From Escherichia phage EJP2, in sequence record OQ411014.1: 64,000 nt of DNA. One strand, given 5' to 3'. Shown one piece after another: positions 3,583 through 41,742 of the stretch. Position numbers and translations under genes: made by a program. The notes beneath the pieces were generated by a model. It had not been told where the DNA came from and ran no database searches. It saw only the letters and a list, made by a program, of their open reading frames with translations. How positions within the stretch are numbered: position 1 is the stretch's first letter; the number at the start of each line of letters is the position of its first letter.

Positions 3583-3605
3583 TGTACGCTTTTTAAGGAG
3601 TACTT

Positions 3606-3839: not shown

Positions 3840-3849
3840 GAGATATAAA

Positions 3850-4281
3850 ATGGCAGGAAAAGGATATTGCAGCCTAAAACTTGATAAAGCACAAGCAAAG
3901 GAATTGAAACGGATTTTAAAAATCGGTGGCGTTGAATGCTTAGACCCTTCGGATTTGCATTGTACTTTAATGTACGATGAAAGTAATCCTAACATCAAAA
4001 TGCTCAAGAACACAAAGACTTATAAAGCTAAAGTAACTGGTGTTAGTAAATTGGGTGATGCGATTGTATTGGATTTGGAATCCCCTGGCATCAAGAAACG
4101 TCATCAGGAATTGAAGAATGCTGGTTATAAGCACTCATTCCCTGAATTGAAAATTCATATGAGCATCAACTACGATCCAAAAAGTACTGATAAGGATTTA
4201 CTAGAACTCTTTATCAAATTGAAGGGTATTCCTTCAGTACTGATATTTGGTAATGAAAAATTTGAATCTCTAAAGCCGTAA
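3850..4281 (+). CDS. 2H phosphoesterase-family protein (LigT/Acb1-like fold)
   Basis: two H-x-T/S-x motifs (HCTL near residue 37, HMSI near residue 113) at the spacing typical of 2H phosphoesterases; 143 aa. Confidence 0.5.
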   Translation: MAGKGYCSLKLDKAQAKELKRILKIGGVECLDPSDLHCTLMYDESNPNIKMLKNTKTYKAKVTGVSKLGDAIVLDLESPGIKKRHQELKNAGYKHSFPELKIHMSINYDPKSTDKDLLELFIKLKGIPSVLIFGNEKFESLKP

Positions 4282-4291
4282 GGAGTATATA

Positions 4292-5050: not shown

Positions 5051-5059
5051 GAGTGAGTT

Positions 5060-5614
5060 ATGGATTTTACAGAGATACCATTCGGACAACGCAGTGAAAG
5101 ATTTGACTGTGCGTTCGTTTGGATCTACGCTAAGAATTGCACACCATACAAGGATTATCCATATAATGATATTCCTAACGTATCTTTAGTACTGACAGAG
5201 TTACGCTTTGATGGTCTAATGGGTGCGGTTGGTGGAGCAGTTGAGGATGATGATCCTTCATTGGAAGTGGCAGTGCAACGTGAAGCCTTAGAGGAAATAA
5301 ACTTTTCTCTTGACATTACTAATCTGAAACCGTTATTATCATTACGTTCCCCATACGGAGCACATAACCATAGTTTCTCGTACGAAGTACAGTACGATGA
5401 GCTACTAGAGATTCGGAACAACGCATACAAAGGTGCTCACTTCAGTGCTGAAAATGCGGGTGTAAATCTGATTCACGTATGTCGCTATACGAAGGGAAGA
5501 GGGAACGAATGTGGTTACAATAACATTCTTACACAGAATTTTATTGGCACATCCAAACTGGAACTAGAGCGTTTAGTTCATAATGAAAATTTACTAATAA
5601 ATTACCTTGCATAA
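5060..5614 (+). CDS. Nudix-like hydrolase (imperfect Nudix box)
   Basis: GGAVEDDDPSLEVAVQREALEEINF contains REALEE with altered spacing from the canonical Nudix box. Confidence 0.45.
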   Translation: MDFTEIPFGQRSERFDCAFVWIYAKNCTPYKDYPYNDIPNVSLVLTELRFDGLMGAVGGAVEDDDPSLEVAVQREALEEINFSLDITNLKPLLSLRSPYGAHNHSFSYEVQYDELLEIRNNAYKGAHFSAENAGVNLIHVCRYTKGRGNECGYNNILTQNFIGTSKLELERLVHNENLLINYLA

Positions 5615-5624
5615 AGGATAAAAT

Positions 5625-5957
5625 ATGTATAAGATGTTTATAGACGACCTTCGGGATGCAGAGAAGCATTACCCAAATGAAGGATTCATCGTCACAAGGA
5701 CTTACAATGAAGCTGTACAGTACGTACAAGAACATGGTCTACCTAGTTTTGTTTCATTCGACCATGACTTGGGCGACACTGACAGTACTGATGAGAAGAC
5801 TGGATATTCTTTTGCTAAGTTCCTCATCGAGTACATGATTGATAACGATTTGCGGGAACCGTTTGAGTACTTTATTCACAGTGCTAATCCAGTTGGTGCA
5901 GAGAATATCAAACAGTACTTGCAAAATGGGTTCAACTTTATCCAAGGGCAAGCATGA
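5625..5957 (+). CDS. hypothetical protein
   Basis: 110-aa ORF with aaggat RBS. Confidence 0.45.
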   Translation: MYKMFIDDLRDAEKHYPNEGFIVTRTYNEAVQYVQEHGLPSFVSFDHDLGDTDSTDEKTGYSFAKFLIEYMIDNDLREPFEYFIHSANPVGAENIKQYLQNGFNFIQGQA

Positions 5958-6244
5958 AAGTAATAACATTTATTCTGATTTTGATTGTTGTTGTTGGTAT
6001 TCGCCTTAAAATAGCGGAGAACCAATACAACACTGAAAGACTGAATATTACGAAAGAATCTGGAACAGTAGTTGCAACTGGACAATGCAACAAATACACT
6101 TGTGCTTACTCTGTAAAAACCTCTAGTGGTTCTACAGTGAACAGTACTGGTGACACTCCGGTAAGTCTCGGTCAAATCGTATACCGTGAATGCTGGGAAG
6201 AAAGGGTCAGGGGTCCGCGTTGTTACGTAGACTTTAGACCATAA
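5954..6244 (+). CDS. hypothetical protein with N-terminal signal or anchor
   Basis: 96 aa; hydrophobic N-terminus VITFILILIVVVG; ATGA start/stop overlap with upstream gene. Confidence 0.4.
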   Translation: MKVITFILILIVVVGIRLKIAENQYNTERLNITKESGTVVATGQCNKYTCAYSVKTSSGSTVNSTGDTPVSLGQIVYRECWEERVRGPRCYVDFRP

Positions 6245-6269
6245 AACACTATCATGAAAAGGGAATTTT

Positions 6270-7724
6270 ATGAAAAAATATGCTATTGATACAAACGTAC
6301 TTCTAAGCGATCCAAACGCAGCAACCGCTTTCAAAGGTGCTACAGTGGTTCTACCATTTACAGTACTGGAAGAAATGGACTCCATCAAGAGTCGTGGTGT
6401 TGACGTTAGCCGTGATGCACGTGTAGCAATTCGCAATATCAGTAACATCCTGGAAGACGCGTCTCATGAAGAGATTAGTACTACTGGGGTTGATATGTCC
6501 AAACTACATCCACATTTAGATTCCGACAGTCGTCTAATGATTGTTACATCTGAAGAAGCTGAAGCACTTCTACGTGTTGCAGGTATTGATAAGTCCGATG
6601 CTGAACTTACAAAAGTTGCTACACTAATGAACAGTACTGTACCGGATGACAAGATTATTCTTGTTGCTCTAGCTACAGAATCAGTACTGGTTACTCGTGA
6701 TATCAACATGCGTATCAAAGCTATGGCTTATGGTGTTGAAGTTCAGGACTATCGTAGTGATGTTACTATTTCCGATTCTGACCTACTACATATTGGGAAC
6801 CACAAACTAGAGTTTTCGTTCTGGGATACCATTGCGGATCGTGGTTTAGAAGTTTTCAGTACTAAAGAAGGTCGTAACACTTATCAACTAATTGCTAAAG
6901 ATGCAATTCAGGATCTACTACCAGAAAATCTATGCGTTGGTGACTATCTATATGATGACACTGATTTGCTAATGGTATATGATGGAGAAGGTGATCGTGA
7001 GTTCTCTGATGGTGAAGTTGATGACACAGTGTACTCCGTGTTCATTGATGTTGGTCAACACAGTGCAATGCGTACTAAGATTTGGGATATCAAAGCTAAG
7101 AACGTGAAACAAGCAATGGCAATCAACAGTATTCTTGACCCTAATGTTCACTTGACAGTACTGTTAGGTTCTGCGGGTACAGGTAAGACTTTGATTACTC
7201 TAGCATGTGCACTAGAACTAACATTAGAGAAGCGTCAGTACGATAAAGTTATTTTCTCTAAAACCCAAGACTCACAGTTTGATGAAATTGGTTTCTTACC
7301 AGGAACCGAAATGGAAAAAATGCTTCCGAATTGTGGACCTGCACTGGATGCATTGGAATTCCTTCACAAAGATGATGCTAACCCTCAAGGTTCAATTGAA
7401 GAAATCATCAAACGTAATGTTGTACAATTCAAAGCACTGAACTTTATTCGTGGACGTTCGTTTACCAATACAATTCTAGTTGTTGATGAATTCCAAAACA
7501 TTACTCCGGCTCAAGCTAAAACTATCTTGACACGGGCAGGAATGAACTGTAAAGTTATCATCATGGGTAACTTAGCACAGATTGATAGTAAGTTTATCAG
7601 TTCTGTAAACAGCGGTTTGACCTATGTAGTTGAGAAGTTCAAAGATTGGGAAGGTTGTCGTATCATCGAACTCGAAGGTGTTGTACGTTCTGCACTAGCT
7701 GAATTCGCTGAAGAAAATATGTAA
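6270..7724 (+). CDS. phoH: PIN-domain / PhoH-like ATPase fusion
   Basis: N-terminal YAIDTNVLLSDP (PIN-like); Walker A LLGSAGTGKT; Walker B-like VVDEFQNI. Confidence 0.8.
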   Translation: MKKYAIDTNVLLSDPNAATAFKGATVVLPFTVLEEMDSIKSRGVDVSRDARVAIRNISNILEDASHEEISTTGVDMSKLHPHLDSDSRLMIVTSEEAEALLRVAGIDKSDAELTKVATLMNSTVPDDKIILVALATESVLVTRDINMRIKAMAYGVEVQDYRSDVTISDSDLLHIGNHKLEFSFWDTIADRGLEVFSTKEGRNTYQLIAKDAIQDLLPENLCVGDYLYDDTDLLMVYDGEGDREFSDGEVDDTVYSVFIDVGQHSAMRTKIWDIKAKNVKQAMAINSILDPNVHLTVLLGSAGTGKTLITLACALELTLEKRQYDKVIFSKTQDSQFDEIGFLPGTEMEKMLPNCGPALDALEFLHKDDANPQGSIEEIIKRNVVQFKALNFIRGRSFTNTILVVDEFQNITPAQAKTILTRAGMNCKVIIMGNLAQIDSKFISSVNSGLTYVVEKFKDWEGCRIIELEGVVRSALAEFAEENM

Positions 7725-16881: not shown

Positions 16882-19581
16882 ATGACTAAAAGAATTTATG
16901 GAGGCTTAGACGTTACTCATAACGTAACAGTTCAGGGCAAAAGGACAGTACAAGGTATCAATAATCAAGTATTCGATGCGAATGGTGATATGAAGATTAA
17001 TACCTATACTCAACAGGAATTACTCGATATTGTTAGCTTAATGCCAATATCACACTACGGTACTCACAACTACTTACCTGCTGGTGTTAGTGGGGACTTT
17101 AATGGTGCAGCGGAGAACCCAGCACAACGTAGAAACAAAATCCTACTGGAGAACGATGGTACACTAGTAATGCTACGTGCTGGTACAAACGGCAGTGTAG
17201 AAGGTTTATTCTATGCTTACCTACCAAATGCACTATCAGTTACTGATTTAGGTAGAGGTGTAAACACTGGTCGTCAGTACAAGCCAGGTTATTTTGGTAG
17301 TACTAAAACTGCTTTCGGTTTGTATAATACAGATGAGAACATTCTTCTAGGAAGATATTCTGATTCGTCAAATGGCAGTACTGGATGGTTTATTTCCATT
17401 ACTAACGGAACACTAGATGACACACAACATAATGGTTTCTTCTTGAATGCTTATACTGATATTGCCCCTCAAGGTGGTGTTGAATATGCAATGATGGCAG
17501 AAGATGGTTCAATTTACGTATTCAGTGTAGATACAAGTAATAACGAATTTAATATTGCAGTTGTTAGAGTTACTTTCAATTTGACGAATAAAACTTACAC
17601 AGCGTCAAGAATCACTGGTTGGACAACCAAGACGTTCTATAATACTACATATTCAGCAGATACTAATATTGTAGTGACGAAGAAAGTAAACTCAACTAAT
17701 ATCGCTGATAAGCCATATATGTACGTTCCGAATGGACTACTTGGTTTAGGTGTATACATGACGTCAATTGACTTGTGTGTAGCACAACAGCCAGGTACAC
17801 AGAACTTCCGCTTTAGAGTTAATGGTGATGCGTGGGCTACTATGGCAACGTATAATACCAGACCACAGCACAGTTATAGTTTCAACTTCAATATGAGTAC
17901 TAAACAATGTACGCTGGATGCAGGGAATGACATTGGTTCAAACGCAGCACCATTTATTGTTACTAATACAGGTTCACAATTAATTGCTTCTGGTAACGTA
18001 ATCAACCAAGATGATTTATATAATCACGGTGGGTGGAGAAACATTTATAGTTCTTACTATTACTTGGATATTGGTACAGTATTCTGTACTACGAGTCCTA
18101 ACTTGTCAGAACCATTGGGGATTGAAAAAGCAACATACCCAGCACAAAGTGTTTACAGTATGCTTAACGTAAGAGCAGTCAATGCATCAGCATTCAATAA
18201 AGGGAATCTTGGTCCTTCGTTCGGTTCAGCAGTTGGTTCTTACATTAACGGCGTAGAATTACTACCAGGTAACAGTACTAAACAATTCTCTCGTTCTTCT
18301 GGTACTGGTGCATTTAGACCATCATATGCAGTACATGCTGCTTCACCTACCTTTACGTTTAAATCTCTTTCAAGAGGTACAATGAAAGGTTATGAGCCTA
18401 CTGCTGAACGTGATTTCATTACAGATAATATAAACAACCGTATTTTCATTAGTACTGTATCTGGTTCGAATGTTACGACAAATGGTGGGATTTTCATGGT
18501 TGGTCAACGTTATTCACAGTCTTTGTCATTTGACAAACATGGTGTTGGTACTGGAACAATCTCGGTCACTGATTCAGTACTGGTAAATTTCAGAAATTCT
18601 GAATATGCAAAAGTACCTGCTTCATGGAATCTTTCTACAGCAGCAACTAAAGATATGACACTATTTGTTCCACAACAAACTGATATTCCTGCTTTTGTAA
18701 TGTTAAGTACTGTTACTACTGGAAATAAAAACTATATTAAGATTGTGGAAGTGAACGTTAATACCAGAAGTGGTAATATTACTTCAATTAGTTTTAAGCG
18801 TAATGTAATTGAAAACGTTTATGGTGATAGTTTTACACCAAATGGTGCTGGTGGTTTTGCTTCATCTTCTGTAGGTTTAACAATATATGATGGCGGTTCG
18901 TTCTACTTTATTGGTGGTTCAGATCCTTTATCTCACCCAACAATTGGCAATACGAATACACATCAATTCAGAGCTATTGTTACTAAAAGTACTGCACAAT
19001 TTGACAGCTTTATTATTTCAGGTTCACATGCTAGTTATGAACAGGGTATTCAACCTGCTGCTCTTCCTGGTATTGGCTTTGGGTATTTCCAAGCAATTGA
19101 CTACTCAAACAAAATGACATTCCAGAAATGTGGTACTACTGTTGCTGAATATAATGCATGGACAGCAATTGGTGATCCAATTAACGTAGTTTCACAAGAC
19201 GTTGCACAAGGATTTGTTGTTTACTTCAACGAAGAAACACCAGTAATGCTCAGTGGTAAGTCATTTACGATGCCAGTTCAAAGTGTTGATTTGAAAACTA
19301 TTAAAGCTAACCCAGCGAATACGACATTCCACATTTATGTGAGAATGAACCAAGGTAATGCAGAATATCATATAACTACTGAAGTTATTTCCGAAACTGG
19401 TAGTACTGCATATAACGTATTCTGGATTGGTACTGTTACTACGGATGCTATCCAAATCTCGACTATTAATGTATTCAAGCGTTCTCGTTTGGATGTATTT
19501 GGTGCATCACTTGAACCAACCGGATCATCATTCCCAGTGAGTTATGGTCTACCATCAGGCAACGGAACAATTAACTGGTAA
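16882..19581 (+). CDS. putative tail fibre / receptor-binding protein (paralog A)
   Basis: 899 aa, S/T/G/N-rich; N-terminal similarity to 20188 ORF; shared C-terminal motif ending GTINW. Confidence 0.5.
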   Translation: MTKRIYGGLDVTHNVTVQGKRTVQGINNQVFDANGDMKINTYTQQELLDIVSLMPISHYGTHNYLPAGVSGDFNGAAENPAQRRNKILLENDGTLVMLRAGTNGSVEGLFYAYLPNALSVTDLGRGVNTGRQYKPGYFGSTKTAFGLYNTDENILLGRYSDSSNGSTGWFISITNGTLDDTQHNGFFLNAYTDIAPQGGVEYAMMAEDGSIYVFSVDTSNNEFNIAVVRVTFNLTNKTYTASRITGWTTKTFYNTTYSADTNIVVTKKVNSTNIADKPYMYVPNGLLGLGVYMTSIDLCVAQQPGTQNFRFRVNGDAWATMATYNTRPQHSYSFNFNMSTKQCTLDAGNDIGSNAAPFIVTNTGSQLIASGNVINQDDLYNHGGWRNIYSSYYYLDIGTVFCTTSPNLSEPLGIEKATYPAQSVYSMLNVRAVNASAFNKGNLGPSFGSAVGSYINGVELLPGNSTKQFSRSSGTGAFRPSYAVHAASPTFTFKSLSRGTMKGYEPTAERDFITDNINNRIFISTVSGSNVTTNGGIFMVGQRYSQSLSFDKHGVGTGTISVTDSVLVNFRNSEYAKVPASWNLSTAATKDMTLFVPQQTDIPAFVMLSTVTTGNKNYIKIVEVNVNTRSGNITSISFKRNVIENVYGDSFTPNGAGGFASSSVGLTIYDGGSFYFIGGSDPLSHPTIGNTNTHQFRAIVTKSTAQFDSFIISGSHASYEQGIQPAALPGIGFGYFQAIDYSNKMTFQKCGTTVAEYNAWTAIGDPINVVSQDVAQGFVVYFNEETPVMLSGKSFTMPVQSVDLKTIKANPANTTFHIYVRMNQGNAEYHITTEVISETGSTAYNVFWIGTVTTDAIQISTINVFKRSRLDVFGASLEPTGSSFPVSYGLPSGNGTINW

Positions 19582-19590
19582 GGAGAAATT

Positions 19591-20178
19591 ATGCCATTAC
19601 AATACAGAACGGACGTGAACGCAGCAGGACAAATTAAAGTACAGAATAAAACAACTGGTGTTTCTATTACATCAGGTAACGGTCAAGTATATTCTACAAC
19701 ATCTGCGGGGGCGATTACGTTCCCAGTACTGACAACTGATGATGTGGATTATATTACACTTGAATTACCACTCTCTCAGTTCGGAGAATTGTATGAGAAT
19801 ACTAGTCTTAATATTACAAGTACTGGTTTAGTACTGAAGTTTAATAGAATAATTCCACTCTTCATGAGTGGGATTTACTACGATGTTCCAGTTCAGAACA
19901 TCACAGCACAAGCTGCAACGTCAGGTACAGCAACATATTATGTGTATGTTAAACTAGAACTTGGTGCACCAAAATATTTCATCTCCAGAACAGAAGGTGT
20001 TGAGAACGAAATAACCATGTTCATAGGTACTATCACAGTAAGTACTACCACAATAACAGCAATCAATATTAACAAAGTTTCCAGATTCGGTACATACAGA
20101 CCGAGTACTACACAGAAAGGTTCTTCTTTCCCTGTCAGTACTGGACACCCTTCACAAACTGGTTCAATTAACTGGTAA
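19591..20178 (+). CDS. fibre-associated protein sharing the C-terminal motif
   Basis: 195 aa ending RPSTTQKGSSFPVSTGHPSQTGSINW, paralogous to C-termini of flanking ORFs. Confidence 0.45.
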   Translation: MPLQYRTDVNAAGQIKVQNKTTGVSITSGNGQVYSTTSAGAITFPVLTTDDVDYITLELPLSQFGELYENTSLNITSTGLVLKFNRIIPLFMSGIYYDVPVQNITAQAATSGTATYYVYVKLELGAPKYFISRTEGVENEITMFIGTITVSTTTITAININKVSRFGTYRPSTTQKGSSFPVSTGHPSQTGSINW

Positions 20179-20187
20179 GGAAATAAC

Positions 20188-22941
20188 ATGTCATCTAAAA
20201 GAGTAATAGGTTCAGTTGAGTTTTTAAGTAACTTAGCTGTAAATGGGAAATACGCAATGCGTTCCTTTAATGGTGTCAATCCAGATGCCAATACTGGTAT
20301 AATCACTTATCCATTTTATACCAGAGAAGAAGTTCAGAAGATTCTCGATATACTCCCTGTTTCACGTATAGGTGAAATGGACTATCTACCACCGAACGTA
20401 AGTGGTTCCTTTAGTGGAGCTACTTCATTCTCGAATGATCGCAGAGTTCAGCCATGTATTATTGAAGATGATGGTACAGCCGTAATTATTCGCCCTGGTA
20501 CGAATGGTAGTCAGTTTGATTTTTATTATGCTTACATCCGTAACGTCAGAAATATCCCAACTCTAACACAAAGTGATATTGTTCAGACGAATACCAGATA
20601 TCACCCATCATATCTTACTAGTACTCAAAAGATTGAACAATTTTACGGTACTGATGGATATGATCTTCTTTGGTACAGAGTTTCTGACTCAGTTAATAGT
20701 TCAAACTATTTTGCAATTACATTAACTAACGGTTCCTTTAACGTAGTAGGTCACCAACATGCTCTTATTCCACAAACATCTATGCCTAATTTCACACCAG
20801 CATATGCTCATATCGTGAATGGTTCAGTATACATGTGGGGCTATGACAGTACTTTAGGTTCAGGTAGAGCATTGAAGTTATACACTATCCCAACTAGTTC
20901 GTTGCGTTCTGGTGTTACTACTGGTTTAACTGCTGTCACTGGATTTAATGGAAAAACTATCAACGGTAATGCTTATACAGCAGCCAGTACTGCTAGGATT
21001 TATGATACATATGCAAGTACTACCAGTACTGCTGATTGCTTAATTCAATACACGTCTAACATGTATTCTCCTGAATATCACGACTACGCCATCTCCAATG
21101 CAATGGCGGCTGGTAATGCTGATAATACACAGATTCGTTTCACTATGTTCCCTACATATCGTTACGGTTCTGCGTATGGTTTTAGTGGTATATTCATGTA
21201 CGCAATTAGTTTAGTCTATAATATCAGTACTAAAACATTTACGTACGATACTACATCTTTAGGTAAAATTGTGGTGAATGCTACACTAAATGGTTCTACA
21301 ATGACCTATACAGAAACTGCTAACCCATATTTGGTTGATGCAACTTCATGGCGTGGTTTTGGTGCAAGTCTAGGTAACTGTGGAACAATCTGTCAAGCAG
21401 GTGATGGTTTCATGGTGAGTACTCGCTCTCGTTGGGCAAGTTCTGCTCCTTACGGTGTCAGTACTTCTAAGATTAATAACTTTACTTCTCAATTCGATTC
21501 TATTAAAATGACTGGTAGAAGTGTTACTGCAAATACTCAACTATTTGCTAACCCAATCTACGGTTCTGCAATTGGTGAGAACTTGATGGGTCCACGTCTG
21601 TTAAGTAAAACTCGTATGATTCTTGCATGTTCAGGTACATACGATGGTGTATCCAACGCAAGCTATGACAATACTGTAGTTGCGGACTTCGGTACTGATT
21701 CGAACTTCTCATACAAGTCAATGACTCAAGGTACACTTACTGGGTATGCACCACAAACGTATCGTAAATTCGCTAATAATGACAACTTCAGACTATCAGA
21801 ATTAGTAACACTAATGGACAGTACTGGTAATGTTCAAGCAAGTAGTACTGCATTCATCGAGAACGTTAAGTACACTGGTGGGATTGGTATTAACCCTGAT
21901 ACACTTGAATACACTGGCAGTACTGTTAATATGTCCAATGCAGTTATCCAATCACTTAAACAAGGTATTGCAACTTCTGCTGGTATTCCATTGAATACAA
22001 GTTTGCTTACAGTGTATTACATTCCTGATACATCATATTGCAATCACCAAGCAGTACTAATGGTTCGTAATCCTGATAACACTGGCGTTGTAGTACTAGC
22101 TGAAATGAATTTAACTACAAGTACTTCTGGAAGTACAATTACTGTTACTGGTGGTTCTGTAATAAGAACTTTCGTTCAGAACAGACCAAATATTACTTCA
22201 GTAAATGGTGGGAACTACGCTCGTAACGTTGGTGTTTGTGCTGGTAAATTCAGTGGTTTTAATTACCTTAGTGTTCACTCAGCGAATAACTTTGGTGTTC
22301 CTGGTGATGCAAGGTCTTATTCGTTCTTTGCAAAAGTTAAGGGTGGTGCTATAGTATCACAGAGAATCGATGAGTCCTATTATTCACAGACATATGGCAG
22401 GACTGGTGGTTTCCTACCAGGGAAAGGTTTCGGTTATTATGATAACTCAGTGAGTGATTACCAGACCAAATCCGTGTTCCAACTCTTCGGTACTACTGAA
22501 GCACAGATGGATGCACTAATTGCTGGTACTGGAACATCAACACCTGTTGTTGTTATGTCTCAAGAAGTTCCTGAAGGTTTTAGTGTTTACTTTACACAAG
22601 AACTACCAGTATTCTTAGGTGGTATGTACGATAAGCTACCAATCCAGACAGTTGATTTGAGAACTATCAAAGCTGATCCATCCAATACTACTTTCTATAT
22701 CTACGTATCAATGGATAGAAGTAAAGGTGAAGCATCATACGTTATCAGTACTGCACTCTTGGATGAAACTCTAACCAGAGCATTCATTGGTACTATTGTG
22801 ACTATTGATGCAGGTATTGACCGGATTGATGCAGAGAAGGTAACACGCTTCTTGACTTACAGACCAAGTACTTACAAGAGGGGTTCTGCAATCCCTGCGA
22901 GTACTGGTGTTCCATCTGGGACTGGTTCACGCTGGCATTAA
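20188..22941 (+). CDS. putative tail fibre / receptor-binding protein (paralog B)
   Basis: 917 aa; N-terminal region YTREEVQKILDILPVSRIGEMDYLPPNVSGSFSGA parallels the 16882 ORF; C-terminus RPSTYKRGSAIPASTGVPSGTGSRWH. Confidence 0.5.
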   Translation: MSSKRVIGSVEFLSNLAVNGKYAMRSFNGVNPDANTGIITYPFYTREEVQKILDILPVSRIGEMDYLPPNVSGSFSGATSFSNDRRVQPCIIEDDGTAVIIRPGTNGSQFDFYYAYIRNVRNIPTLTQSDIVQTNTRYHPSYLTSTQKIEQFYGTDGYDLLWYRVSDSVNSSNYFAITLTNGSFNVVGHQHALIPQTSMPNFTPAYAHIVNGSVYMWGYDSTLGSGRALKLYTIPTSSLRSGVTTGLTAVTGFNGKTINGNAYTAASTARIYDTYASTTSTADCLIQYTSNMYSPEYHDYAISNAMAAGNADNTQIRFTMFPTYRYGSAYGFSGIFMYAISLVYNISTKTFTYDTTSLGKIVVNATLNGSTMTYTETANPYLVDATSWRGFGASLGNCGTICQAGDGFMVSTRSRWASSAPYGVSTSKINNFTSQFDSIKMTGRSVTANTQLFANPIYGSAIGENLMGPRLLSKTRMILACSGTYDGVSNASYDNTVVADFGTDSNFSYKSMTQGTLTGYAPQTYRKFANNDNFRLSELVTLMDSTGNVQASSTAFIENVKYTGGIGINPDTLEYTGSTVNMSNAVIQSLKQGIATSAGIPLNTSLLTVYYIPDTSYCNHQAVLMVRNPDNTGVVVLAEMNLTTSTSGSTITVTGGSVIRTFVQNRPNITSVNGGNYARNVGVCAGKFSGFNYLSVHSANNFGVPGDARSYSFFAKVKGGAIVSQRIDESYYSQTYGRTGGFLPGKGFGYYDNSVSDYQTKSVFQLFGTTEAQMDALIAGTGTSTPVVVMSQEVPEGFSVYFTQELPVFLGGMYDKLPIQTVDLRTIKADPSNTTFYIYVSMDRSKGEASYVISTALLDETLTRAFIGTIVTIDAGIDRIDAEKVTRFLTYRPSTYKRGSAIPASTGVPSGTGSRWH

Positions 22942-22946
22942 TTTAA

Positions 22947-22980
22947 ACTCAATTGAGGTTGTCTATTGACAGCCTCTTTT
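22947..22980 (+). terminator. hairpin aggttgtc/gacagcct followed by T7
   Basis: 8-bp stem with one G-U pair, overlaps -35 of next promoter. Confidence 0.55.
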
Positions 22981-22994
22981 TTTCTTGATATAAT
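22966..22994 (+). promoter_or_regulatory. sigma70-like promoter TTGACA-N17-TATAAT
   Basis: ttgaca 22966-22971, tataat 22989-22994 preceded by tga. Confidence 0.55.
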
Positions 22995-23021
22995 GTTTAG
23001 ACTCATGGAAGGAGGAAAATT

Positions 23022-23333
23022 ATGCAATACAGAACACCAGTACTGATCAATCGATACAAAAGTAAAGACTTTGATGTTTACATTGGTCGTGGGACAAAAT
23101 GGGGAAACCCGTTCCCAATCGATGAAGCATGTGGTCAAACTCGCCTAATCGTTATTGAAATGTACAGACACCAAATGTATGAATGGCTAGAAAATGGAAC
23201 CATCACTGTTCAGGATATTTTGGATTTATCGGGAAAAACCATTGCATGTTCTTGTGCACCAAAGGCATGTCATGGAGATATAATCATAGAGGTATTCAAT
23301 GAAATAGTGAGTATGATGAATGCAGGAACATAA
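23022..23333 (+). CDS. DUF4326-like small protein
   Basis: FDVYIGRGTKWGNPF resembles the YIGR...WGNPF signature recalled for DUF4326. Confidence 0.55.
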   Translation: MQYRTPVLINRYKSKDFDVYIGRGTKWGNPFPIDEACGQTRLIVIEMYRHQMYEWLENGTITVQDILDLSGKTIACSCAPKACHGDIIIEVFNEIVSMMNAGT

Positions 23334-23721
23334 AATATATGACATCATTAAAACTCTTAAAACTTGTAAGAGAGTAACATTATCTGAAAAAGTTTACTGC
23401 GGTTTAAATGATAAAAAGTGTATCATGTTCGATTGTATAGATGATGGTGAATCCAGCATTAGTATTGCTAGTCCTAAGAATCCTAATGGTGATTTTATCT
23501 TCTGTACAGTTACTGATGAACTTGAATTTGTACTCGTCAAGAGTGATGGTGCACAATCTGAAATCTTAGACTTGAGTACTGAAGATAGATTCTTTCAACG
23601 AAGTTTACTCTTTGACTTATCATTAACCTATGATGAGTATCAATCAGTACTTCATAATTTCAACAAATTTTATAACGGACTAATCAGTACTGTTATAATC
23701 TATTCAACCGAGGTCATATAA
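23320..23721 (+). CDS. hypothetical protein
   Basis: 133-aa ORF overlapping neighbours by a few nt. Confidence 0.45.
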   Translation: MQEHKIYDIIKTLKTCKRVTLSEKVYCGLNDKKCIMFDCIDDGESSISIASPKNPNGDFIFCTVTDELEFVLVKSDGAQSEILDLSTEDRFFQRSLLFDLSLTYDEYQSVLHNFNKFYNGLISTVIIYSTEVI

Positions 23722-24968
23722 TGTCAAAAAATATGCTCGAAAATATCATCGTAAAACACTACGCTGGTAGTATCGCTTATGGTACAAATACTCCCTTATC
23801 AGATGTTGATTTCCGTGGAATCTTTATGGCTCCAAAGGAATTCATCTTGTCTCCGTTCGTAAACGTAGGGGAAGCATCTGATTCAAAAGAAGAAGATACT
23901 AAATTCTACGAACTCAATAAGTTCATGAAACTAAATGTCGATGCGAACCCGAATATCCTCGAAACACTATGGGTCGATGATGAACACATCGTTGAAAGTA
24001 CTGAAATGTACCAACATCTTCGCAAGCACAGAAGTGAACTACTAAGTAATAAGATTGCATTTACTTATACTGGATTCGCATATAACCAAGTTCACCGCAT
24101 GAGCAACCATAATGGCTGGATGGATAAAGAGAGAATTGCTGAACGCAGACTCAATGAAATCATCGAAAAACATCCTTGTATTGAAGTGAAAGAGTGGATG
24201 TACGAATATTTCCCTCATTATGTCATTGACCGGATTGACTTCTCTAATGTAAAAGGTTATAGTGATGATGTTGATTTGGACTTGGATAAGTTCTTGCGTG
24301 ATAGTTCTCTGCAACTGATCAGTACTAAATCCTTAGCACAGCATCACTTCGTGCGTTTAGTACATAATTACTTACCACAGAAAGTACTTGACCGTGATTT
24401 CAACTTAGCTCATTTCAATACGAATCATGAACTAATTCACTACGGTGATAATATCTTTGCAGTAGTTCCAACTCAGGGGAAATCGAAAGTACTTTCAGTA
24501 CATAACGATTTAGTTTGGGATTCAAAGAAAGAACGTACTCCTGAAGAACTAAAAGTACTTCCATCTTTGATTGTGAAATTCAATCGCAAAGAATATGAAG
24601 AACTGAATGATAAACGCAAGCACTATCACAAGTGGAAAGAGAACCGTAACAGTATTCGTGCTGAACTGGAGTCAAAGAATGGCTTCGATACTAAGCACGC
24701 AATGCACGTGGTTCGTTTATTACGTACAGCAAAAGAAGCACTGTTGACTGGTGTCATCAACGTCAAACGTCCTGATGCGGAAGAATTACTTGCAATCCGT
24801 AATGGTGCTTGGACATATGAAGAAATGATGAAGTACTTTGAATCTGAATCTAAATTAGTAATGAACTTAGGTAAAACATCAAAAGTACTTCCATCGTCCC
24901 CAAACCGTAAACTAGCAACTCAATTAGTACTAGACTTACGTGAGATGCATTGGAAACAAGGAAAATAA
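23721..24968 (+). CDS. Pol-beta superfamily nucleotidyltransferase (PF10127-like)
   Basis: N-terminal AGSIAYGTNTPLSDVDFRGIF matches the GS...G...SDxDxRG signature; 415 aa. Confidence 0.5.
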   Translation: MSKNMLENIIVKHYAGSIAYGTNTPLSDVDFRGIFMAPKEFILSPFVNVGEASDSKEEDTKFYELNKFMKLNVDANPNILETLWVDDEHIVESTEMYQHLRKHRSELLSNKIAFTYTGFAYNQVHRMSNHNGWMDKERIAERRLNEIIEKHPCIEVKEWMYEYFPHYVIDRIDFSNVKGYSDDVDLDLDKFLRDSSLQLISTKSLAQHHFVRLVHNYLPQKVLDRDFNLAHFNTNHELIHYGDNIFAVVPTQGKSKVLSVHNDLVWDSKKERTPEELKVLPSLIVKFNRKEYEELNDKRKHYHKWKENRNSIRAELESKNGFDTKHAMHVVRLLRTAKEALLTGVINVKRPDAEELLAIRNGAWTYEEMMKYFESESKLVMNLGKTSKVLPSSPNRKLATQLVLDLREMHWKQGK

Positions 24969-24969
24969 T

Positions 24970-25122
24970 ATGCCTGAACTACAGAAACATATTGACGCTA
25001 TCATTGAACTTTACTTCAACGAAAAAGATACAGTAAAGCGTTATGAAATTGCAGCAGAAGTACAACATGCACTAGATGAAGCACGTCAAGCTACTGTTCA
25101 TAAAATCACTAAAGGCAAATAA
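24970..25122 (+). CDS. small hypothetical protein
   Basis: 50-aa ORF from ATG 24970, upstream of a strong terminator. Confidence 0.3.
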   Translation: MPELQKHIDAIIELYFNEKDTVKRYEIAAEVQHALDEARQATVHKITKGK

Positions 25123-25129
25123 CGAAAAA

Positions 25130-25157
25130 GGCCCAGATTATTCTGGGCTTTTTTATG
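25130..25157 (+). terminator. hairpin gcccaga/tctgggc followed by T6
   Basis: perfect 7-bp stem, 4-nt loop, T-tract. Confidence 0.8.
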
Positions 25158-25198
25158 TGCTAAATATTTGTACATTCATCATCAACACGGAGGTACAT

Positions 25199-25555
25199 AT
25201 GGGTGTATTCACGAAGTACTGGAAACTTGCTTCAGTACTTATTCTGTTACTAGGCTCATTCTATTCAGGGTGGTACGTAAAGACTCTAAAGGATGGTTAT
25301 GAACAGAATATTGTTAAAGAAGTAAAACAAGAAGTACAGGGTGCATTAAAGGAAGTAAAAGAACAGAACTACCAAAACTACTTAAACACGAAAGAGTATT
25401 TGGATTCTAAACAAATCAATGTAATCAAAGAAAAGATTCCAGTTATCATTGAGAAAGAAAAAGAGATATACTTCCAGTACTGTTTAGAAGAGGAAGGAGT
25501 AGAGGCTCTACGTATTCTACGTGAGAACTCAAGAATTGCGAGAGGTATGAAATGA
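25199..25555 (+). CDS. putative i-spanin (inner-membrane spanin subunit)
   Basis: ATG 25199 with ggagg RBS; N-terminal TM helix then K/E-rich coiled-coil-like region; directly upstream of lipoprotein gene. Confidence 0.5.
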   Translation: MGVFTKYWKLASVLILLLGSFYSGWYVKTLKDGYEQNIVKEVKQEVQGALKEVKEQNYQNYLNTKEYLDSKQINVIKEKIPVIIEKEKEIYFQYCLEEEGVEALRILRENSRIARGMK

Positions 25556-25875
25556 AAAAGTTAATCCTTAGTATTGTATTCGCTTGTACAGTACTTCTAT
25601 GTGGTTGTGCACCAAAAGCATTAGTAACAATGGAAGCACCTATACTGGAGACTGATTCTAAGTTCCTGGAGCGTTGTACTGCTGATACACCAGTACCGGA
25701 AAATCCTTACATTGATAAAGACGGGAAGAAGCTATACAATGGTATTTCCAGCATGGAAGCCTTTCAAAAATGGCAAACAGTATATGATGATTGTGCACTC
25801 AAACATGATGCACTAATAAATGTTATACTAGAATTGCAAAAAAATCGTACAGTACTATTGAAGAAAGAACATTGA
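25552..25875 (+). CDS. putative o-spanin (outer-membrane lipoprotein)
   Basis: signal peptide with lipobox LLCGC; 107 aa; ATGA overlap with the i-spanin candidate. Confidence 0.55.
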   Translation: MKKLILSIVFACTVLLCGCAPKALVTMEAPILETDSKFLERCTADTPVPENPYIDKDGKKLYNGISSMEAFQKWQTVYDDCALKHDALINVILELQKNRTVLLKKEH

Positions 25876-25927
25876 TGTATTATACTCAGGGGGTCCAATA
25901 TCGGATTCCCTTTTTTATGGAGCAAAT

Positions 25928-26293
25928 ATGACAACTAAAATTTTCCCTCAGAGTCTTATGAAGGATCTATCTTACGGTTACGGTACTACTAAGGTCATGG
26001 GTGATTATAATGAAAAGACTGATTCCTTCGCACCGGATATCGAATATGAAGTCTTACACAATGAACAGTGTAATACTACTCGTTGGAACAGTGTTCATGA
26101 TTTAGTTTTTCTTGACAAGAGTACTGGGAAAACGTATCATACACAGTATGAAGTTGGTCTTACCGAATCGCAGTATTTGAGTGCATTTGACTATGATAAA
26201 GAAGGTGTCGAATGTACTGAAGTACAAACGTGGGAAGAGCAAGTTACCTATACAGTGTTAAAATGGCGGGATAAAAATGATTCAAGATATTGA
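25928..26293 (+). CDS. hypothetical protein
   Basis: 121-aa ORF. Confidence 0.45.
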   Translation: MTTKIFPQSLMKDLSYGYGTTKVMGDYNEKTDSFAPDIEYEVLHNEQCNTTRWNSVHDLVFLDKSTGKTYHTQYEVGLTESQYLSAFDYDKEGVECTEVQTWEEQVTYTVLKWRDKNDSRY

Positions 26294-33441: not shown

Positions 33442-34071
33442 ATGACAACTCACGTTAGGTATTATATTGCATATAATGGAAGACCAGTTCGTTCTATTGG
33501 ATTAGATCTTGAGCCAGTAATGTCTGTACAGACTAATCTATACTTCAGTACTGAAGAAGAAGCAGACTCTTTCATTATGACTAGGATTGCAACTGCGTCC
33601 ACTACACTTTATCATATTCATTTTGATTGTATTGATAAGTACTCAATCGTCAAAGAAATTGTTCAGTTGGAACCGTGCAGTACTAAAACTAATTATATGC
33701 GAAACTATACTCTAACTTGGTTGCGATTACTCGACCAGGATATCTGTACTGATTCTATGATTTCCACTACTATACGTGCGTTCGTCATGCGTGGGTTTAG
33801 TACATCAGGATTGGATTTAGAAGAAGTGAAAAACTTGATTTTGGGTAATCCAAAACTTCAAAAAACCATTGACAAACTTATTCCAAAGCATATAATCTCT
33901 AATATTGAAAATTACATGCAAGATGGTTTAGTCAATGCTCCGGTGGAAGAGCTTGAATTCTTGAATCTAACAATTTCAGATGAAATGAAATTTGATCTTG
34001 ACTTCGAAGAACTCTTCCCTTACAATAAGTTCAAACCAACAAAATGGGAAAATCATGGAACTAGTAACTGA
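33442..34071 (+). CDS. hypothetical protein
   Basis: 209-aa ORF. Confidence 0.45.
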   Translation: MTTHVRYYIAYNGRPVRSIGLDLEPVMSVQTNLYFSTEEEADSFIMTRIATASTTLYHIHFDCIDKYSIVKEIVQLEPCSTKTNYMRNYTLTWLRLLDQDICTDSMISTTIRAFVMRGFSTSGLDLEEVKNLILGNPKLQKTIDKLIPKHIISNIENYMQDGLVNAPVEELEFLNLTISDEMKFDLDFEELFPYNKFKPTKWENHGTSN

Positions 34072-35308
34072 AGGTCGCAAACTCGTAACAATTCGTAAAA
34101 TCAATGCAATTGATGCAATTGAAGGTGCAGATCTGATTGTCAAAGCAACTGTTGACGGTTGGGATGTAGTTGTGAAGAAAGATGAATTCAACGTTGGGGA
34201 TTACTGTGTATTCTTCGAAATCGATTCATTCCTTCCAGTACAGACACCACAATTCGCATTCTTGGCGGGTTCAGGCTGTAAACTCGATGAACAGAATGTA
34301 GAACGTTTCCGTCTACGTACTCGTAAACTTCGCGGGGTAGTCTCTCAAGGCTTGGCTCTACCAGTATCTCTATTTGAGGCAGTACTGGAAGCTATTGACG
34401 AAGCTGGTGGTCATCACCCTGACTCGTACACTACAACGGCACGTGAAGAACTCCTAGTGAGTCTAGAGGCGAATCGTGAAGGCATTGAGCAATTCCTCAA
34501 TGTAACCAAATACGAGCGTCCTGATGAGCGTAATGGCGGTACTGGTGCATCTAAGTGCAAAGCTGCTGGTAACTTCCCTATCGTCATTCCTAAGACTGAT
34601 GAAGACCGTATTCAGAACGTAATGGGTAAGTACTCTCAGACTATGAAAGGTGTTGCATTCCGTAAATCACTGAAACTGGATGGTTCTAGCCAGACAATTG
34701 CATTCATTAGCAATCCTGATTTCTTTGTAGATAAAGTTGATGAAGAAGTCCGTGCATGGAATGAAGAGACTCAAGAACTTGAAGTTGTTGAAGTGAAGCC
34801 ATACCCGTTCCAATGGGAAGATGGTCAGGTAGCAGTATGTTCTCGCAATCTTGCGTTGAAATTTGATGCTGAATCTCACTTCTGGAAAGCAGCACTGAAA
34901 GATGATATTCCAGCACGTCTGAAAGAGTACTGTGTTCGTAATGACCGCCAACTAGCACTACAAGGCGAAGTAATGGGTCCTGGTATCCAAGGGAACCGTG
35001 AAGAACTGACCGAACATCAATTCTACGTATTCCGTATTTGGGATATTGATAATAAATGTTTCCTTGATGATGGTGATTTCTTGACACTATCTGCACTACT
35101 GGGATTGACTACAGTACCGCAAGGTGATATCGTGTACTTCTTCGATGAATACACTTCTATCAAAGAAGCATTGGCATCTGCTGACCACGCATCTATCAAG
35201 CATAAGATCGCGGAAGGCGATGTGTTCAAAAGTGTATCTAAAGTGAATGGTGTTACTGTACACTTCAAGGTAATCAACAACAAATTCTTGCTCAAATGTG
35301 AGGACTAA
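34055..35308 (+). CDS. ATP-dependent RNA ligase-like nucleotidyltransferase
   Basis: start set at ATG 34055; candidate motif I lysine in SLKLDGSS (KxDG) about 170 aa from the N-terminus, preceded by an N-terminal domain. Confidence 0.5.
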   Translation: MELVTEGRKLVTIRKINAIDAIEGADLIVKATVDGWDVVVKKDEFNVGDYCVFFEIDSFLPVQTPQFAFLAGSGCKLDEQNVERFRLRTRKLRGVVSQGLALPVSLFEAVLEAIDEAGGHHPDSYTTTAREELLVSLEANREGIEQFLNVTKYERPDERNGGTGASKCKAAGNFPIVIPKTDEDRIQNVMGKYSQTMKGVAFRKSLKLDGSSQTIAFISNPDFFVDKVDEEVRAWNEETQELEVVEVKPYPFQWEDGQVAVCSRNLALKFDAESHFWKAALKDDIPARLKEYCVRNDRQLALQGEVMGPGIQGNREELTEHQFYVFRIWDIDNKCFLDDGDFLTLSALLGLTTVPQGDIVYFFDEYTSIKEALASADHASIKHKIAEGDVFKSVSKVNGVTVHFKVINNKFLLKCED

Positions 35309-35916
35309 TGAAGAAAAAATTCGGCGTGGCGATAAATGACGCCGACTATGCTGTAACATCATATGACGATGCTGGTAAACGCCAGCATTGTCCCTTTTAT
35401 CGAAGATGGGCGAGTATGATAAATCGATGTTATGGTGATGTTGGTGCAACATACACTGAATCCTATGTATGTGATGAATGGTTAACCTTCTCTAACTTTA
35501 AGAGATGGATGGAAACACAAAAATGGGAAGGTATGGAGTTGGACAAAGATTTACTTTATATCAACAATAAGGAATATGGCCCAAATACATGTTTATTTTT
35601 ACCAAAGGTTATTAATTCACTATTCGTTGATAGTAAATCGAGCCGTGGTACTAATCCGATTGGTGTATCTTTTGAAAAACGTCGATTGAAATATGAAGCA
35701 TATATATCAATTGATAATAAGAAAAAACATCTTGGATATTTTGATAACCCAATTGATGCACATGTAAAATGGCAACATGCAAAATTGAAAGTATTGGAAG
35801 ATTTCATGAAAACGTTATCTGACCCTATACATATACAAATTGTAGATTTGCGAATCAACAAGCTAAAGAATGATATACAATCAAATATCATAACCGAATC
35901 TTTACATCATTTCTAA
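35308..35916 (+). CDS. AP2-domain DNA-binding protein, homing-endonuclease-like
   Basis: C-terminal YEAYISIDNKKKHLGYFDNPIDAHVKWQ resembles an AP2 domain; N-terminal W..M..RC pattern. Confidence 0.4.
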   Translation: MKKKFGVAINDADYAVTSYDDAGKRQHCPFYRRWASMINRCYGDVGATYTESYVCDEWLTFSNFKRWMETQKWEGMELDKDLLYINNKEYGPNTCLFLPKVINSLFVDSKSSRGTNPIGVSFEKRRLKYEAYISIDNKKKHLGYFDNPIDAHVKWQHAKLKVLEDFMKTLSDPIHIQIVDLRINKLKNDIQSNIITESLHHF

Positions 35917-39891: not shown

Positions 39892-41001
39892 ATGAAAAAG
39901 TATTTGGTTGGTGGTTTTGTACGCGATAAGCTACTTGGCTTACGTCCTAAAGACAAAGATTATGTCTTGGTAGGAGCGACCCCGCGTGATATTCAGTACT
40001 TAAAAAGTATTGGATATGAGCAGGTTGGTGCAGACTTCCCTGTGTTCTTGGATAAGGACGGCAATGAGCACGCACTTGCCCGTACTGAACGCAAGGTGTC
40101 TGATGGCTATAATGGCTTTGAAGTGAATACACAAGGTGTAACGCTTCAGGAAGACTTGTATCGTCGTGATTTGACCATCAATGCGATTGCCTTTGACCCA
40201 CAGTTAAAGGTACACGTAGACCCATATGGTGGCAAAGAAGACCTAAAGAACAAAGTACTGCGACATGTATCTGAACATTTTGAAGAAGATCCAGTACGTA
40301 TTCTGCGTATCGCTCGTTTCAGTGCACGTTATTCGGACTTTACAGTACATGAAAGTACTGAATCGTTGATTCGCCGTATGATCAATCGTGGCGATATTTC
40401 TGAATTGACTAAAGAGCGAGTGTACGTAGAATTCGAGAAAGCATTCTCCGAAGAAGAGCCAGTTATCTTCCTGGAGAAGCTATCCAAATGGGGAGCCATG
40501 AGTAAGTTGATTCCTGGTAATCCTGAAAGTACTTACAAGACTATTGAATACATTAGTTCCAATTGTACTTTAGCGTATAAGGATTTTTACTTGTGGGCTG
40601 AACTAATTGGTTCTAATGAAGTACAAAAAGATGGAGTCTTTGGTCAGGTCAAGCTACCATCGCGTTACTCTAAGTTCAGTGCGTATGTATGCAAGCACGC
40701 GGATAGTATCAAGAATTTCCGTAAGAGCACCCCAGAAGAAATGGTAAATATTCTTACTGAGATGAGCGTAAAGAACAACGGTGGTGAAGAGTACTTGTAC
40801 AAAGTACTGGAATACTTTATCCTACGTAAAGAGATTGATTTGGACTTAGAAGATTTGATTATTCGAGTTTATGATCGCTTTGAGAATACGGTCATTGGTA
40901 ATATTGATCAGATGCTTAAAGATGGAACTATCACTTCACGTGAAATTCCTTCTTTTGTGAAAGAGAAGCGAATCGCTGAGGTGGAAAAAATCTTCAAATA
41001 A
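39892..41001 (+). CDS. CCA-adding tRNA nucleotidyltransferase / poly(A) polymerase family
   Basis: GGFVRDKLLG, DKDYV and RRDLTINA head-domain motifs; 369 aa. Confidence 0.8.
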   Translation: MKKYLVGGFVRDKLLGLRPKDKDYVLVGATPRDIQYLKSIGYEQVGADFPVFLDKDGNEHALARTERKVSDGYNGFEVNTQGVTLQEDLYRRDLTINAIAFDPQLKVHVDPYGGKEDLKNKVLRHVSEHFEEDPVRILRIARFSARYSDFTVHESTESLIRRMINRGDISELTKERVYVEFEKAFSEEEPVIFLEKLSKWGAMSKLIPGNPESTYKTIEYISSNCTLAYKDFYLWAELIGSNEVQKDGVFGQVKLPSRYSKFSAYVCKHADSIKNFRKSTPEEMVNILTEMSVKNNGGEEYLYKVLEYFILRKEIDLDLEDLIIRVYDRFENTVIGNIDQMLKDGTITSREIPSFVKEKRIAEVEKIFK

Positions 41002-41002
41002 A

Positions 41003-41032
41003 TTGAGATATTTTCGAAAAAAGTGATATATT
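41003..41032 (+). promoter_or_regulatory. sigma70-like promoter TTGAGA-N18-TATATT with TGA
   Basis: same architecture as the family, weaker -10. Confidence 0.4.
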
Positions 41033-41064
41033 ATAAGTATCTGAGATATGTAAGAGATAAAAAT

Positions 41065-41742
41065 ATGCGATATACATGCGGGATAATATTTTATCGAAAC
41101 GGTCAGATACTTGTAGGTCACACGACTGGTCAGAGTCATTGGGATTTACCGAAAGGTAAGACTGAAGGTTCTGAGACATTCAAGGAAGCGGCAGTTCGTG
41201 AATGCTATGAAGAAACTGGATACAGTATTGATGAACGAGATTTACTGTACTTAGGTGATGTATCATACAGAAAGGGAAAGCGTTTAGTACTGTTCTTTTA
41301 CACAGCCAAGACGAAACCAATTGCTGAAGAGTTGCAATGTATCAGTACTTACACGAATAAGTACGGTATTGTACGTCCAGAGTTGGACAAATTCAAGTAC
41401 ATAGACATTGAGGACTGTGAACTCTACTTGACTGAACGGATGTGTGATAGTATAATCAAAGCTATTACACAATTTGATAAAAAGACAAATAAAAAGGAAG
41501 ATAATATGAAAGTTGTAATTTATGGTCGTAAAGCTGGTTGTAAGTGGTGTACTACTGCTAAAGAAGTTTGTGAAACTAACTCAATTGATTTTGATTTCAT
41601 TGATTTAGATGAAGCTGGTATTGATGGTGCTAAACTCGCTGAAATTTGTGGCACTCCAGTACGTACTGTTCCACAAATTTTCGTTGACGATCAACACATT
41701 GGTGGTTGTACTGAGTTTATTTCGCACCTATCCAAAATGTAA
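41065..41742 (+). CDS. Nudix hydrolase fused in frame to a glutaredoxin/NrdH-like domain
   Basis: perfect Nudix box GKTEGSETFKEAAVRECYEETG; C-terminal MKVVIYGRKAGCKWC (CxxC) preceded by internal RBS aggaag at 41494 and ATG 41506, no stop between the domains. Confidence 0.6.
   Translation: MRYTCGIIFYRNGQILVGHTTGQSHWDLPKGKTEGSETFKEAAVRECYEETGYSIDERDLLYLGDVSYRKGKRLVLFFYTAKTKPIAEELQCISTYTNKYGIVRPELDKFKYIDIEDCELYLTERMCDSIIKAITQFDKKTNKKEDNMKVVIYGRKAGCKWCTTAKEVCETNSIDFDFIDLDEAGIDGAKLAEICGTPVRTVPQIFVDDQHIGGCTEFISHLSKM

Follow-up and report, generated by a model that had tools for sequence, protein, structure and literature searches.

The RlaP-family gene and its product

The present analysis concerns a stretch of DNA of 64,000 nucleotides (nt) from Escherichia phage EJP2 (sequence record OQ411014.1), hereafter called the window, and a gene located in it that encodes a putative nucleotidyltransferase (NTase). 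The gene was identified by the calling of open reading frames (ORFs) as an ATG-initiated frame on the plus strand, coordinates 23721–24968, with a product of 415 amino acids (aa); exactly the same frame had been indicated by an earlier examination of the bare sequence (the sequence-only reading). A GAGG Shine-Dalgarno sequence is located 8 nt 5' of the start codon, and the start overlaps by 1 nt with the stop codon of the preceding 133-aa ORF. All genes in the vicinity are on the plus strand. The features of the locus are listed in Table 1.

According to the search in the Pfam database, the protein scores 60.3 bits (E = 3e-16) with PF10127 (RlaP, 'RNA repair pathway DNA polymerase beta family'), for which the gathering score is 23. 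Only residues 9–131 are covered, corresponding to positions 20–144 of the 249 positions of the profile. The RlaP family was reportedly defined by Burroughs and Aravind in 2016. The PHROGs search assigned residues 2–413 to phrog_388 'nucleotidyltransferase' (E = 3.8e-70), and the NCBIfam search with the 415-aa protein gave zero matches. In a large protein database, 1493 homologues were found at E ≤ 1e-5, and all those listed had already been annotated as PF10127; one of them, 100% identical to the protein, occurs on 8 metagenomic contigs in public data.

With tblastn, 914 phage records gave a match, ranging from jumbo phages of ~350 kb to the T4-type NrdC.11. Protein identity was 68% for Salmonella phage 7t3, 58% for Asteriusvirus and about 26–28%, in the first 150 residues, for NrdC.11. 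At the nucleotide level, none of the GenBank phage records exceeded 73% identity with the region 22900–26000, of which only 25% matches at all. Judging from sequence, the window appears to derive from a phage of the ~350-kb class, a relative of the group of 7t3, Cronobacter phage GAP32 and Asteriusvirus.

The N-terminal signature GS...G...SDVDFRG pointed out in the sequence-only reading was found in residues 16–33 (GSIAYGTNTPLSDVDFRG). An alignment of 24 sequences shows that G16, S17, D28, D30, E51, E58, D59 and N76-P77-N78-x-x-E81 are invariant, and the same set with the exception of E58 holds in an alignment of 13 sequences that includes the ~288-aa bacterial relatives. In the profile–profile comparison, D28 and D30 align to the DxD of canonical RlaPs and D59 to their invariant third Asp, D77. 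The protein has all parts of the Pol-beta signature (G[SA], DxD and third Asp). The catalytic acidic triad, whose loss in alignment the sequence-only reading had named as a counter-indication, is preserved, since D28 and D30 sit on the DxD and D59 on the third Asp. With the above PF10127 score and the active site intact, the placement of the protein in the Pol-beta superfamily, as an NTase of the PF10127 type, proved to be correct. The observation at 23721–24968 is confirmed and lies far beyond chance, the basis being PF10127, phrog_388, the homologues, the phage records and the conserved acidic residues; the protein almost certainly belongs to the RlaP family.

Similarity with canonical RlaPs, assessed by an hhalign comparison of four such sequences with the window clade, extends over residues 10–125 only (probability 93%, E = 2.7e-7). 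The comparison with NrdC.11 of phage RB43 covers residues 14–407, with the C-terminal domain included (probability 99%, E = 9e-18). Because the alignment to canonical RlaPs covers the NTase domain alone, the C-terminal homology rests on the NrdC.11 alignment and on a motif, K-x6-R-x8-L-x-[TS]G, that occurs with equal spacing in the window clade and two of the four canonical RlaPs; the motif was detected by a regular expression only and is suggestive. A fold search in BFVD returned phage 'nucleotidyltransferases', for example that of phiTE (E = 3e-17). The AlphaFold2 (AF2) model (predicted template modelling score 0.75; mean predicted local distance difference test score, pLDDT, in Table 1) has the layout of an NTase domain and a C-terminal helical bundle, as described for the crystal structure of PfRlaP. 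Full-length structural membership in RlaP is plausible. PF10127 includes T4 NrdC.11, which falls into cluster 5 of the sequence similarity network (PMC12776372).

Between the two domains, two additional modules were found. The helical insertion is present in the enterobacterial jumbo-phage clade, partially present in the homologues P0097 and P0110, and missing in the phage homologues of ~350 aa as well as in bacterial relatives; its helices in the model span residues 133–150, 154–163 and 188–200. The beta-rich module (strands 211–216, 236–242, 245–250 and 283–287) is common to all phage-type homologues of 350–415 aa and is missing from the ~288-aa bacterial relatives. As for the C-terminal helical bundle, it is confidently modelled, with the terminal helix at residues 396–413, and contains W305, R309, N310, R313, E317, D323, K325, H329, R332, R350 and D352, which are invariant in both alignments.

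Table 1. Positions of the RlaP-family gene, its parts and other features in the window.
Feature	Position	Strand	Basis or remarks
RlaP-family (PF10127/phrog_388) NTase gene, 415 aa	23721..24968	+	ORF; Pfam; phrog_388; AF2 mean pLDDT 89.8
N-terminal Pol-beta NTase domain, residues 1–133	23721..24119	+	All homologues; invariant columns and hhalign to canonical RlaP
G16-S17 and D28-x-D30	23766–23819	+	Invariant in both alignments
Third carboxylate, D59	23895–23897	+	Followed by invariant NPNxxE, residues 76–81
Helical insertion, ~70 aa, residues ~134–205	24120..24335	+	Alignment gaps and model; boundaries approximate
Beta-rich middle module, residues ~206–290	24336..24590	+	Alignment and model
C-terminal helical domain, HEPN-like bundle, residues ~291–415	24591..24965	+	All homologues
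Terminator-like hairpin and T-run	22955..22976	+	Ends preceding phrog_3573 gene; overlaps promoter -35
Perfect sigma-70-type promoter, TTGACA-17-TATAAT, extended -10 TG	22966..22994	+	12/12 match
DUF4326 protein, 103 aa, first gene of putative unit	23022..23333	+	PF14216, E = 2.5e-21
133-aa ORF, phrog_22376	23320..23721	+	Translationally coupled to RlaP
RNA ligase, DraRnl/DRB0094 type, N-terminal OB fold and PF09414	34055..35308	+	phrog_968, E = 2.8e-102; PF21189 and PF09414
CCA-adding enzyme (tRNA nucleotidyltransferase)	39892..41001	+	phrog_2244, E = 3e-108; PF01743 and PF12627; 15 kb downstream of RlaP
cREC_REC cyclic-phosphate-processing domain protein	5625..5957	+	PF20274, E = 6e-26; candidate RNA end-healing enzyme
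Acb1 anti-CBASS 2H phosphoesterase	3850–4281

Surroundings of the gene in the window and in related loci

Repair of RNA is represented in the window by several genes. The RNA ligase, whose homologues are annotated as 'DRB0094 family', is encoded 9 kb downstream of RlaP on the same strand, outside the RlaP operon. Its ATG start is likely and fits the OB domain; the TTG at 33992 given by the ORF finder is probably wrong. Being of the DraRnl type, the enzyme is a 5'-phosphate ligase, requires a 3'-OH end and is a likely partner for the 3'-OH product of RlaP. The genes encoding the ligase and the CCA-adding enzyme accompany RlaP loosely, given the distances of 9 and 15 kb. A gene for an HNH endonuclease (35308–35916) directly follows the ligase gene, and the gene for the CCA-adding enzyme is followed by that for a NUDIX-glutaredoxin fusion protein (41023–41742). 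The cRec protein, for which a role in RNA end healing has been proposed (PMC7824862), is encoded in an NAD+/anti-signalling island (380–7724) that contains NAMPT, Acb1, Sir2, Nudt16-like NUDIX, cRec and PIN-PhoH genes. This island is syntenic with positions 1–5960 of a jumbo-phage contig (L003) whose RlaP is 46% identical to that of the window; there, the island, RlaP, thymidine kinase and a ligase of the same type follow one another within 6 kb.

The scan of 185,579 species genomes yielded 19 loci with RlaP relatives. One of the loci (L016) contains, in this order, canonical RlaP, a window-type relative, Hen1 and Pnkp; in another (L010), RtcB and RtcA are located just upstream of the RlaP relative, and in a third (L007) a CCA enzyme is encoded two genes upstream of it. 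According to tblastn analysis of all 25 loci, Hen1, Pnkp, RtcB and RtcA each occur in one locus only. Unexpectedly, a tandem pair is formed in 13 of the 14 high-GC bacterial loci, where the canonical RlaP gene is immediately succeeded by the window-type relative. No mention of such a pair of canonical RlaP and a second paralogue was found in the RlaP literature examined. The tandem pairing supports an association of the window-type subfamily with RNA repair.

The tandem pairs (L012, L014–L025) belong to Chloroflexota, Vulcanimicrobiota, Bradymonadales and other metagenome-assembled genomes. A canonical RlaP of ~255 aa is followed in them by a paralogue of ~288 aa, and the two genes often overlap, as do 5216–5983 and 5980–6849 in L018. 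In L024, the pair adjoins a gene encoding a Cas10-like protein.

In the window, the perfect promoter heads a compact unit composed of the DUF4326 gene, the 133-aa ORF and RlaP. Exact TTGACA-N16–18-TATAAT sequences occur four times in the window, all on the plus strand, with 0.13 expected by chance. The others lie at 33869–33896, ~160 nt 5' of the ligase start, and at 49271–49298 and 56302–56330, where the genes that follow encode a tail-tube paralogue and an ATPase. The promoter was rejected as proof of early expression, another perfect match preceding a tail-tube gene. The scan of neighbours of RlaP showed DUF4326, spanin-like and unknown proteins.

The DUF4326 gene is positioned two genes 5' of RlaP both in the window and, as a homologue at the same position, in 7t3; in L007, an unrelated phage-like contig, it is ≤3 kb from the RlaP relative. 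Its coordinates elsewhere are 5320–5616 in L001 and 2937–3227 (minus strand) in L007. The linkage of DUF4326 with RlaP recurs only in 7t3 and L007 and was rejected as a system. Proteins with DUF4326 are predicted to be enzymes of the rhodanese-phosphatase superfamily that act on ribose-linked phosphates (PMC9503650), and the protein encoded here could be a candidate 3'-end-healing partner of RlaP, with a sparse linkage. The 133-aa ORF was rejected as a conserved partner of RlaP, being present only in 7t3 and Asteriusvirus.

Large phrog_3573 paralogues are encoded upstream of RlaP, and an Rz-like spanin downstream of it. Two of these paralogues, of ~900 aa each, flank a 195-aa ORF (phrog_26864) at 16882–22941, and the latter matches their C-terminal ~115 residues. 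Homologues in Asteriusvirus are annotated as tail or tail-fibre proteins; the paralogues are possibly diversified receptor-binding proteins. In addition, at 48052–50725, three tail-tube paralogues (229, 266 and 364 aa) are encoded in a row after the gene for an 881-aa tail sheath protein.

Proposed activity and alternative explanations

The first biochemical study of PF10127 was presented by Carruthers, Fatma and Huang in a preprint of December 2025 (PMC12776372). Two Pseudomonas RlaPs labelled RNA, and not DNA or protein, of Escherichia coli extracts. The enzymes added one or two nucleoside monophosphates (NMPs), or deoxyadenosine monophosphate (dAMP), to RNA 3'-OH ends, and ends with a 3'-phosphate were no substrate (PMC12776372). 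All four nucleoside triphosphates (NTPs) and deoxyadenosine triphosphate (dATP) were accepted, species of the size of ribosomal RNA (rRNA) and transfer RNA (tRNA) were labelled, and the activity was best with Mn2+ (PMC12776372). In a mimic of cleaved tRNA, PfRlaP favoured the end at the broken anticodon loop over the acceptor end, and RlaP partly rescued the aminoacylation of tRNA missing a nucleotide (PMC12776372). The PfRlaP crystal structure consists of an N-terminal NTase domain and a C-terminal helical domain, with a terminal-helix clamp and a conserved basic cleft (PMC12776372). RlaP was proposed to be an antidote to nucleotide-excising 'smart' ribotoxins such as RloC, and the incompatibility of its product with RtcB was discussed (PMC12776372). 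Previously, Iyer et al. (2021) described RlaP as the most prevalent RNA-repair NTase in jumbo phages and found its distribution to parallel that of RNA ligases (PMC7824862).

With two PF10127 members adding 1–2 NMPs to RNA 3'-OH ends in vitro, the description 'unknown substrate' given in the sequence-only reading is outdated. Its suggestion that the protein might modify a host macromolecule can be retained only if it is taken to mean the extension of damaged RNA ends, the homologues acting on RNA and not on DNA or protein (PMC12776372).

The explanation that we favour, and regard as probable, is that the gene encodes a catalytically competent RlaP-family RNA 3'-end NTase of a jumbo phage. Family membership, the intact active site, the confident two-domain fold and the co-occurrence with RNA-repair genes were computed in this analysis; the RNA 3'-OH substrate, the addition of 1–2 NMPs and the preference for Mn2+ are taken from the literature on homologues. 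From these we infer the same activity for the enzyme of the window, a tRNA target and a counter-defence role. It seems quite probable that the enzyme adds untemplated nucleotides to RNA 3' ends, and a counter-defence role in tRNA repair, suggested by context and literature, appears moderately probable.

In the proposed mechanism, the Pol-beta domain (G16-S17, D28, D30 and D59) would bind an NTP together with a pair of divalent metal ions (probably Mn2+); the helical domain at the C terminus would form the opposite wall of a cleft for the RNA 3'-OH end. The enzyme would extend this end by one or two untemplated nucleotides, restoring those taken from tRNA anticodon loops, or from other RNA ends, by host excising ribotoxins of the RloC type. 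The phage 5'-phosphate RNA ligase could then reseal the tRNA. Since this ligase is of the 5'-phosphate type and uses a 3'-OH, the RlaP product should be directly ligatable, and the incompatibility with RtcB would not arise. The CCA-adding enzyme and the cRec and 2H phosphoesterases may handle other end damage.

Several observations weigh against this explanation. The biochemistry of RlaP comes from one in vitro preprint on two Pseudomonas enzymes, which are of a different subgroup from the phage type. Similarity with canonical RlaPs is confined to the NTase domain, and with the two inserted modules (~155 aa in total) the choice of substrate could differ from that of canonical RlaP. The tandem pairing in bacteria suggests that the window-type activity is non-redundant with that of canonical RlaP and maybe different. 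In just 3 of the 19 genome loci were other RNA-repair genes found in the flanks, and in the window the ligase gene is distant and outside the RlaP operon. Neither tRNA genes nor a clear polynucleotide kinase were found in the window. Finally, the best match among solved structures, although weak, is HalB, a DNA-synthesising NTase.

RNA 3'-tailing could also serve a purpose other than repair: for example, host RNAs or the 3' ends of tRNAs might be marked or blocked so as to redirect translation or decay, or phage transcripts might be modified. The promiscuity of the family, with its four NTPs, dATP and two size classes of labelled RNA, would suit such a use, as would the transcription of RlaP from its own perfect sigma-70 promoter and not together with the ligase, and the phage-specific extra modules could retarget the enzyme; however, relatives are linked to Hen1-Pnkp, RtcB-RtcA and CCA enzymes, the synteny of RlaP and ligase is kept in L003, and the acceptor end is less favoured by PfRlaP than that at the broken anticodon loop (PMC12776372). 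We consider this explanation unlikely.

It is quite unlikely that RlaP of the phage type differs in function from the canonical one and that DUF4326, the 133-aa ORF and RlaP make up a self-contained early cassette for RNA 3'-end healing and extension. The enzyme would in this case descend from the bacterial 'second RlaP' paralogue, having gained the beta-rich module and, in the enterobacterial clade, the helical insertion as well. The DUF4326 protein would strip the 2'/3'-phosphate left by a host ribotoxin and so create the 3'-OH needed by RlaP, and the added modules would confer a tRNA or nucleotide specificity that is missing in the promiscuous bacterial enzymes. RlaP genes as such are not new: their presence in jumbo phages was described in 2021, the biochemistry of the family in 2025, and homologues had already been annotated as 'nucleotidyltransferase'. 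What is specific to the window RlaP is the two inserted modules, the putative 'second RlaP' descent and the promoter-led unit with DUF4326.

Other chemistries were assessed using structural comparison. The Foldseek search against the PDB gave only weak matches, with HalB first (E = 5e-3), followed by the NTase-like protein 3c18, KNT/ANT(4'), LinB and MNT; judging from the model, minimal NTases that carry a helical domain are the closest solved folds. That the enzyme nucleotidylates a protein or small molecule in the manner of MNT/KNT, for example by AMPylating and neutralising a host HEPN RNase toxin in the way of MntA or by inactivating a small molecule, is very unlikely. PF01909 (NTP_transf_2) remained below threshold (14.8 vs 21 bits) and PF10127 was well above its own, the fold matches of this type were all weak (Foldseek E ≥ 0.02, TM about 0.2–0.35), proteins of E. 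coli were not labelled by PfRlaP (PMC12776372), and scans of the neighbours revealed no separate HEPN toxin gene nearby.

Synthesis of oligodeoxyadenylate or another oligonucleotide by a polymerase resembling HalB, the product of which would keep a channel of the Hailong type closed as counter-defence or serve as a signal, is highly improbable in spite of the rank of HalB in the fold search. No sequence or close structural similarity with HalB was found: with TM about 0.2/0.33, the resemblance is limited to the generic NTase core and helices. Single-sequence comparison with PDB sequences gave noise only (an oxidoreductase, E about 0.4), the profile search against them returned nothing at E ≤ 10, the PADLOC defence models gave zero matches with the 415-aa protein, and RlaP membership is a much stronger signal.

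Least probable of all is an enzyme of the cGAS/DncV-like (CD-NTase) type producing, capping or mimicking a second messenger in the form of a cyclic or linear nucleotide: an anti-signalling gene, Acb1, does occur elsewhere in the window, but the protein shares with CD-NTases just the generic Pol-beta GS...DxD signature, and neither a CD-NTase fold nor a CD-NTase profile was recognised, CdnC (6u7b) and CdnE (6e0o) taking Foldseek ranks 35 and 50 at noise level (probability 0.04, E about 1). The PADLOC models likewise gave no match. The likeness to cGAS/DncV seen in the sequence-only reading comes down to this generic signature, and its idea that the protein could synthesise or cap a nucleotide signal found no support.

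Under the favoured explanation of an RNA 3'-end NTase, the annotation may be upgraded from 'hypothetical protein' or 'nucleotidyltransferase of unknown substrate' to 'RlaP-family RNA 3'-end nucleotidyltransferase, probable tRNA-repair counter-defence enzyme'. The contest of tRNA damage and repair is most easily studied genetically in phages. A jumbo phage with RlaP, a 5'-phosphate ligase, a CCA-adding enzyme and cRec would be a convenient system for the question of whether RlaP is an antidote to excising anticodon nucleases.

Comparison with known systems

The closest biochemically described proteins are PfRlaP and PaRlaP from the RtcB-RlaP-RtcA operons of Pseudomonas (PMC12776372). The window protein has in common with them PF10127, the set of GS, DxD and third Asp, the modelled layout of an N-terminal NTase and a C-terminal helical domain, and the association with RNA ligases. 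Canonical RlaPs are of ~255 aa, whereas the protein of the window has 415 aa, two inserted modules and a divergent C-terminal domain. In addition, the Pseudomonas genes form an operon with RtcB, whereas the window RlaP is a phage gene with the ligase outside its operon, and this ligase is of the 5'-phosphate DraRnl type.

T4-type NrdC.11 is likewise a phage-encoded RlaP with full-length homology, as seen for RB43, and the phages that encode it carry RNA ligases. NrdC.11 of RB43 is shorter (328 aa), does not contain the helical insertion of the jumbo clade, and would fall into a different sequence cluster from the window protein. The ~288-aa bacterial 'second RlaP' paralogues show 29–34% overall identity with the window protein and share its N- and C-terminal motifs, among them NPNIIETL and NRNxxRxxLExxxGYDTKHAxH. 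These paralogues lack both middle modules and follow a canonical RlaP gene, whereas the phage window contains no canonical RlaP.

The CCA-adding enzyme (class II tRNA nucleotidyltransferase) is also a Pol-beta NTase, works without a template and repairs the 3' ends of RNA. It differs from the window protein in belonging to PF01743, in its head/neck/body architecture and in acting on the tRNA acceptor end only. HalB of the Hailong system (PDB 9dbh) makes tyrosine-primed poly-dA (PMC13434031) and is paired with the HalA channel; it is 13% identical to the window protein, with no sequence-profile match, and nothing in the latter points to HalB chemistry.

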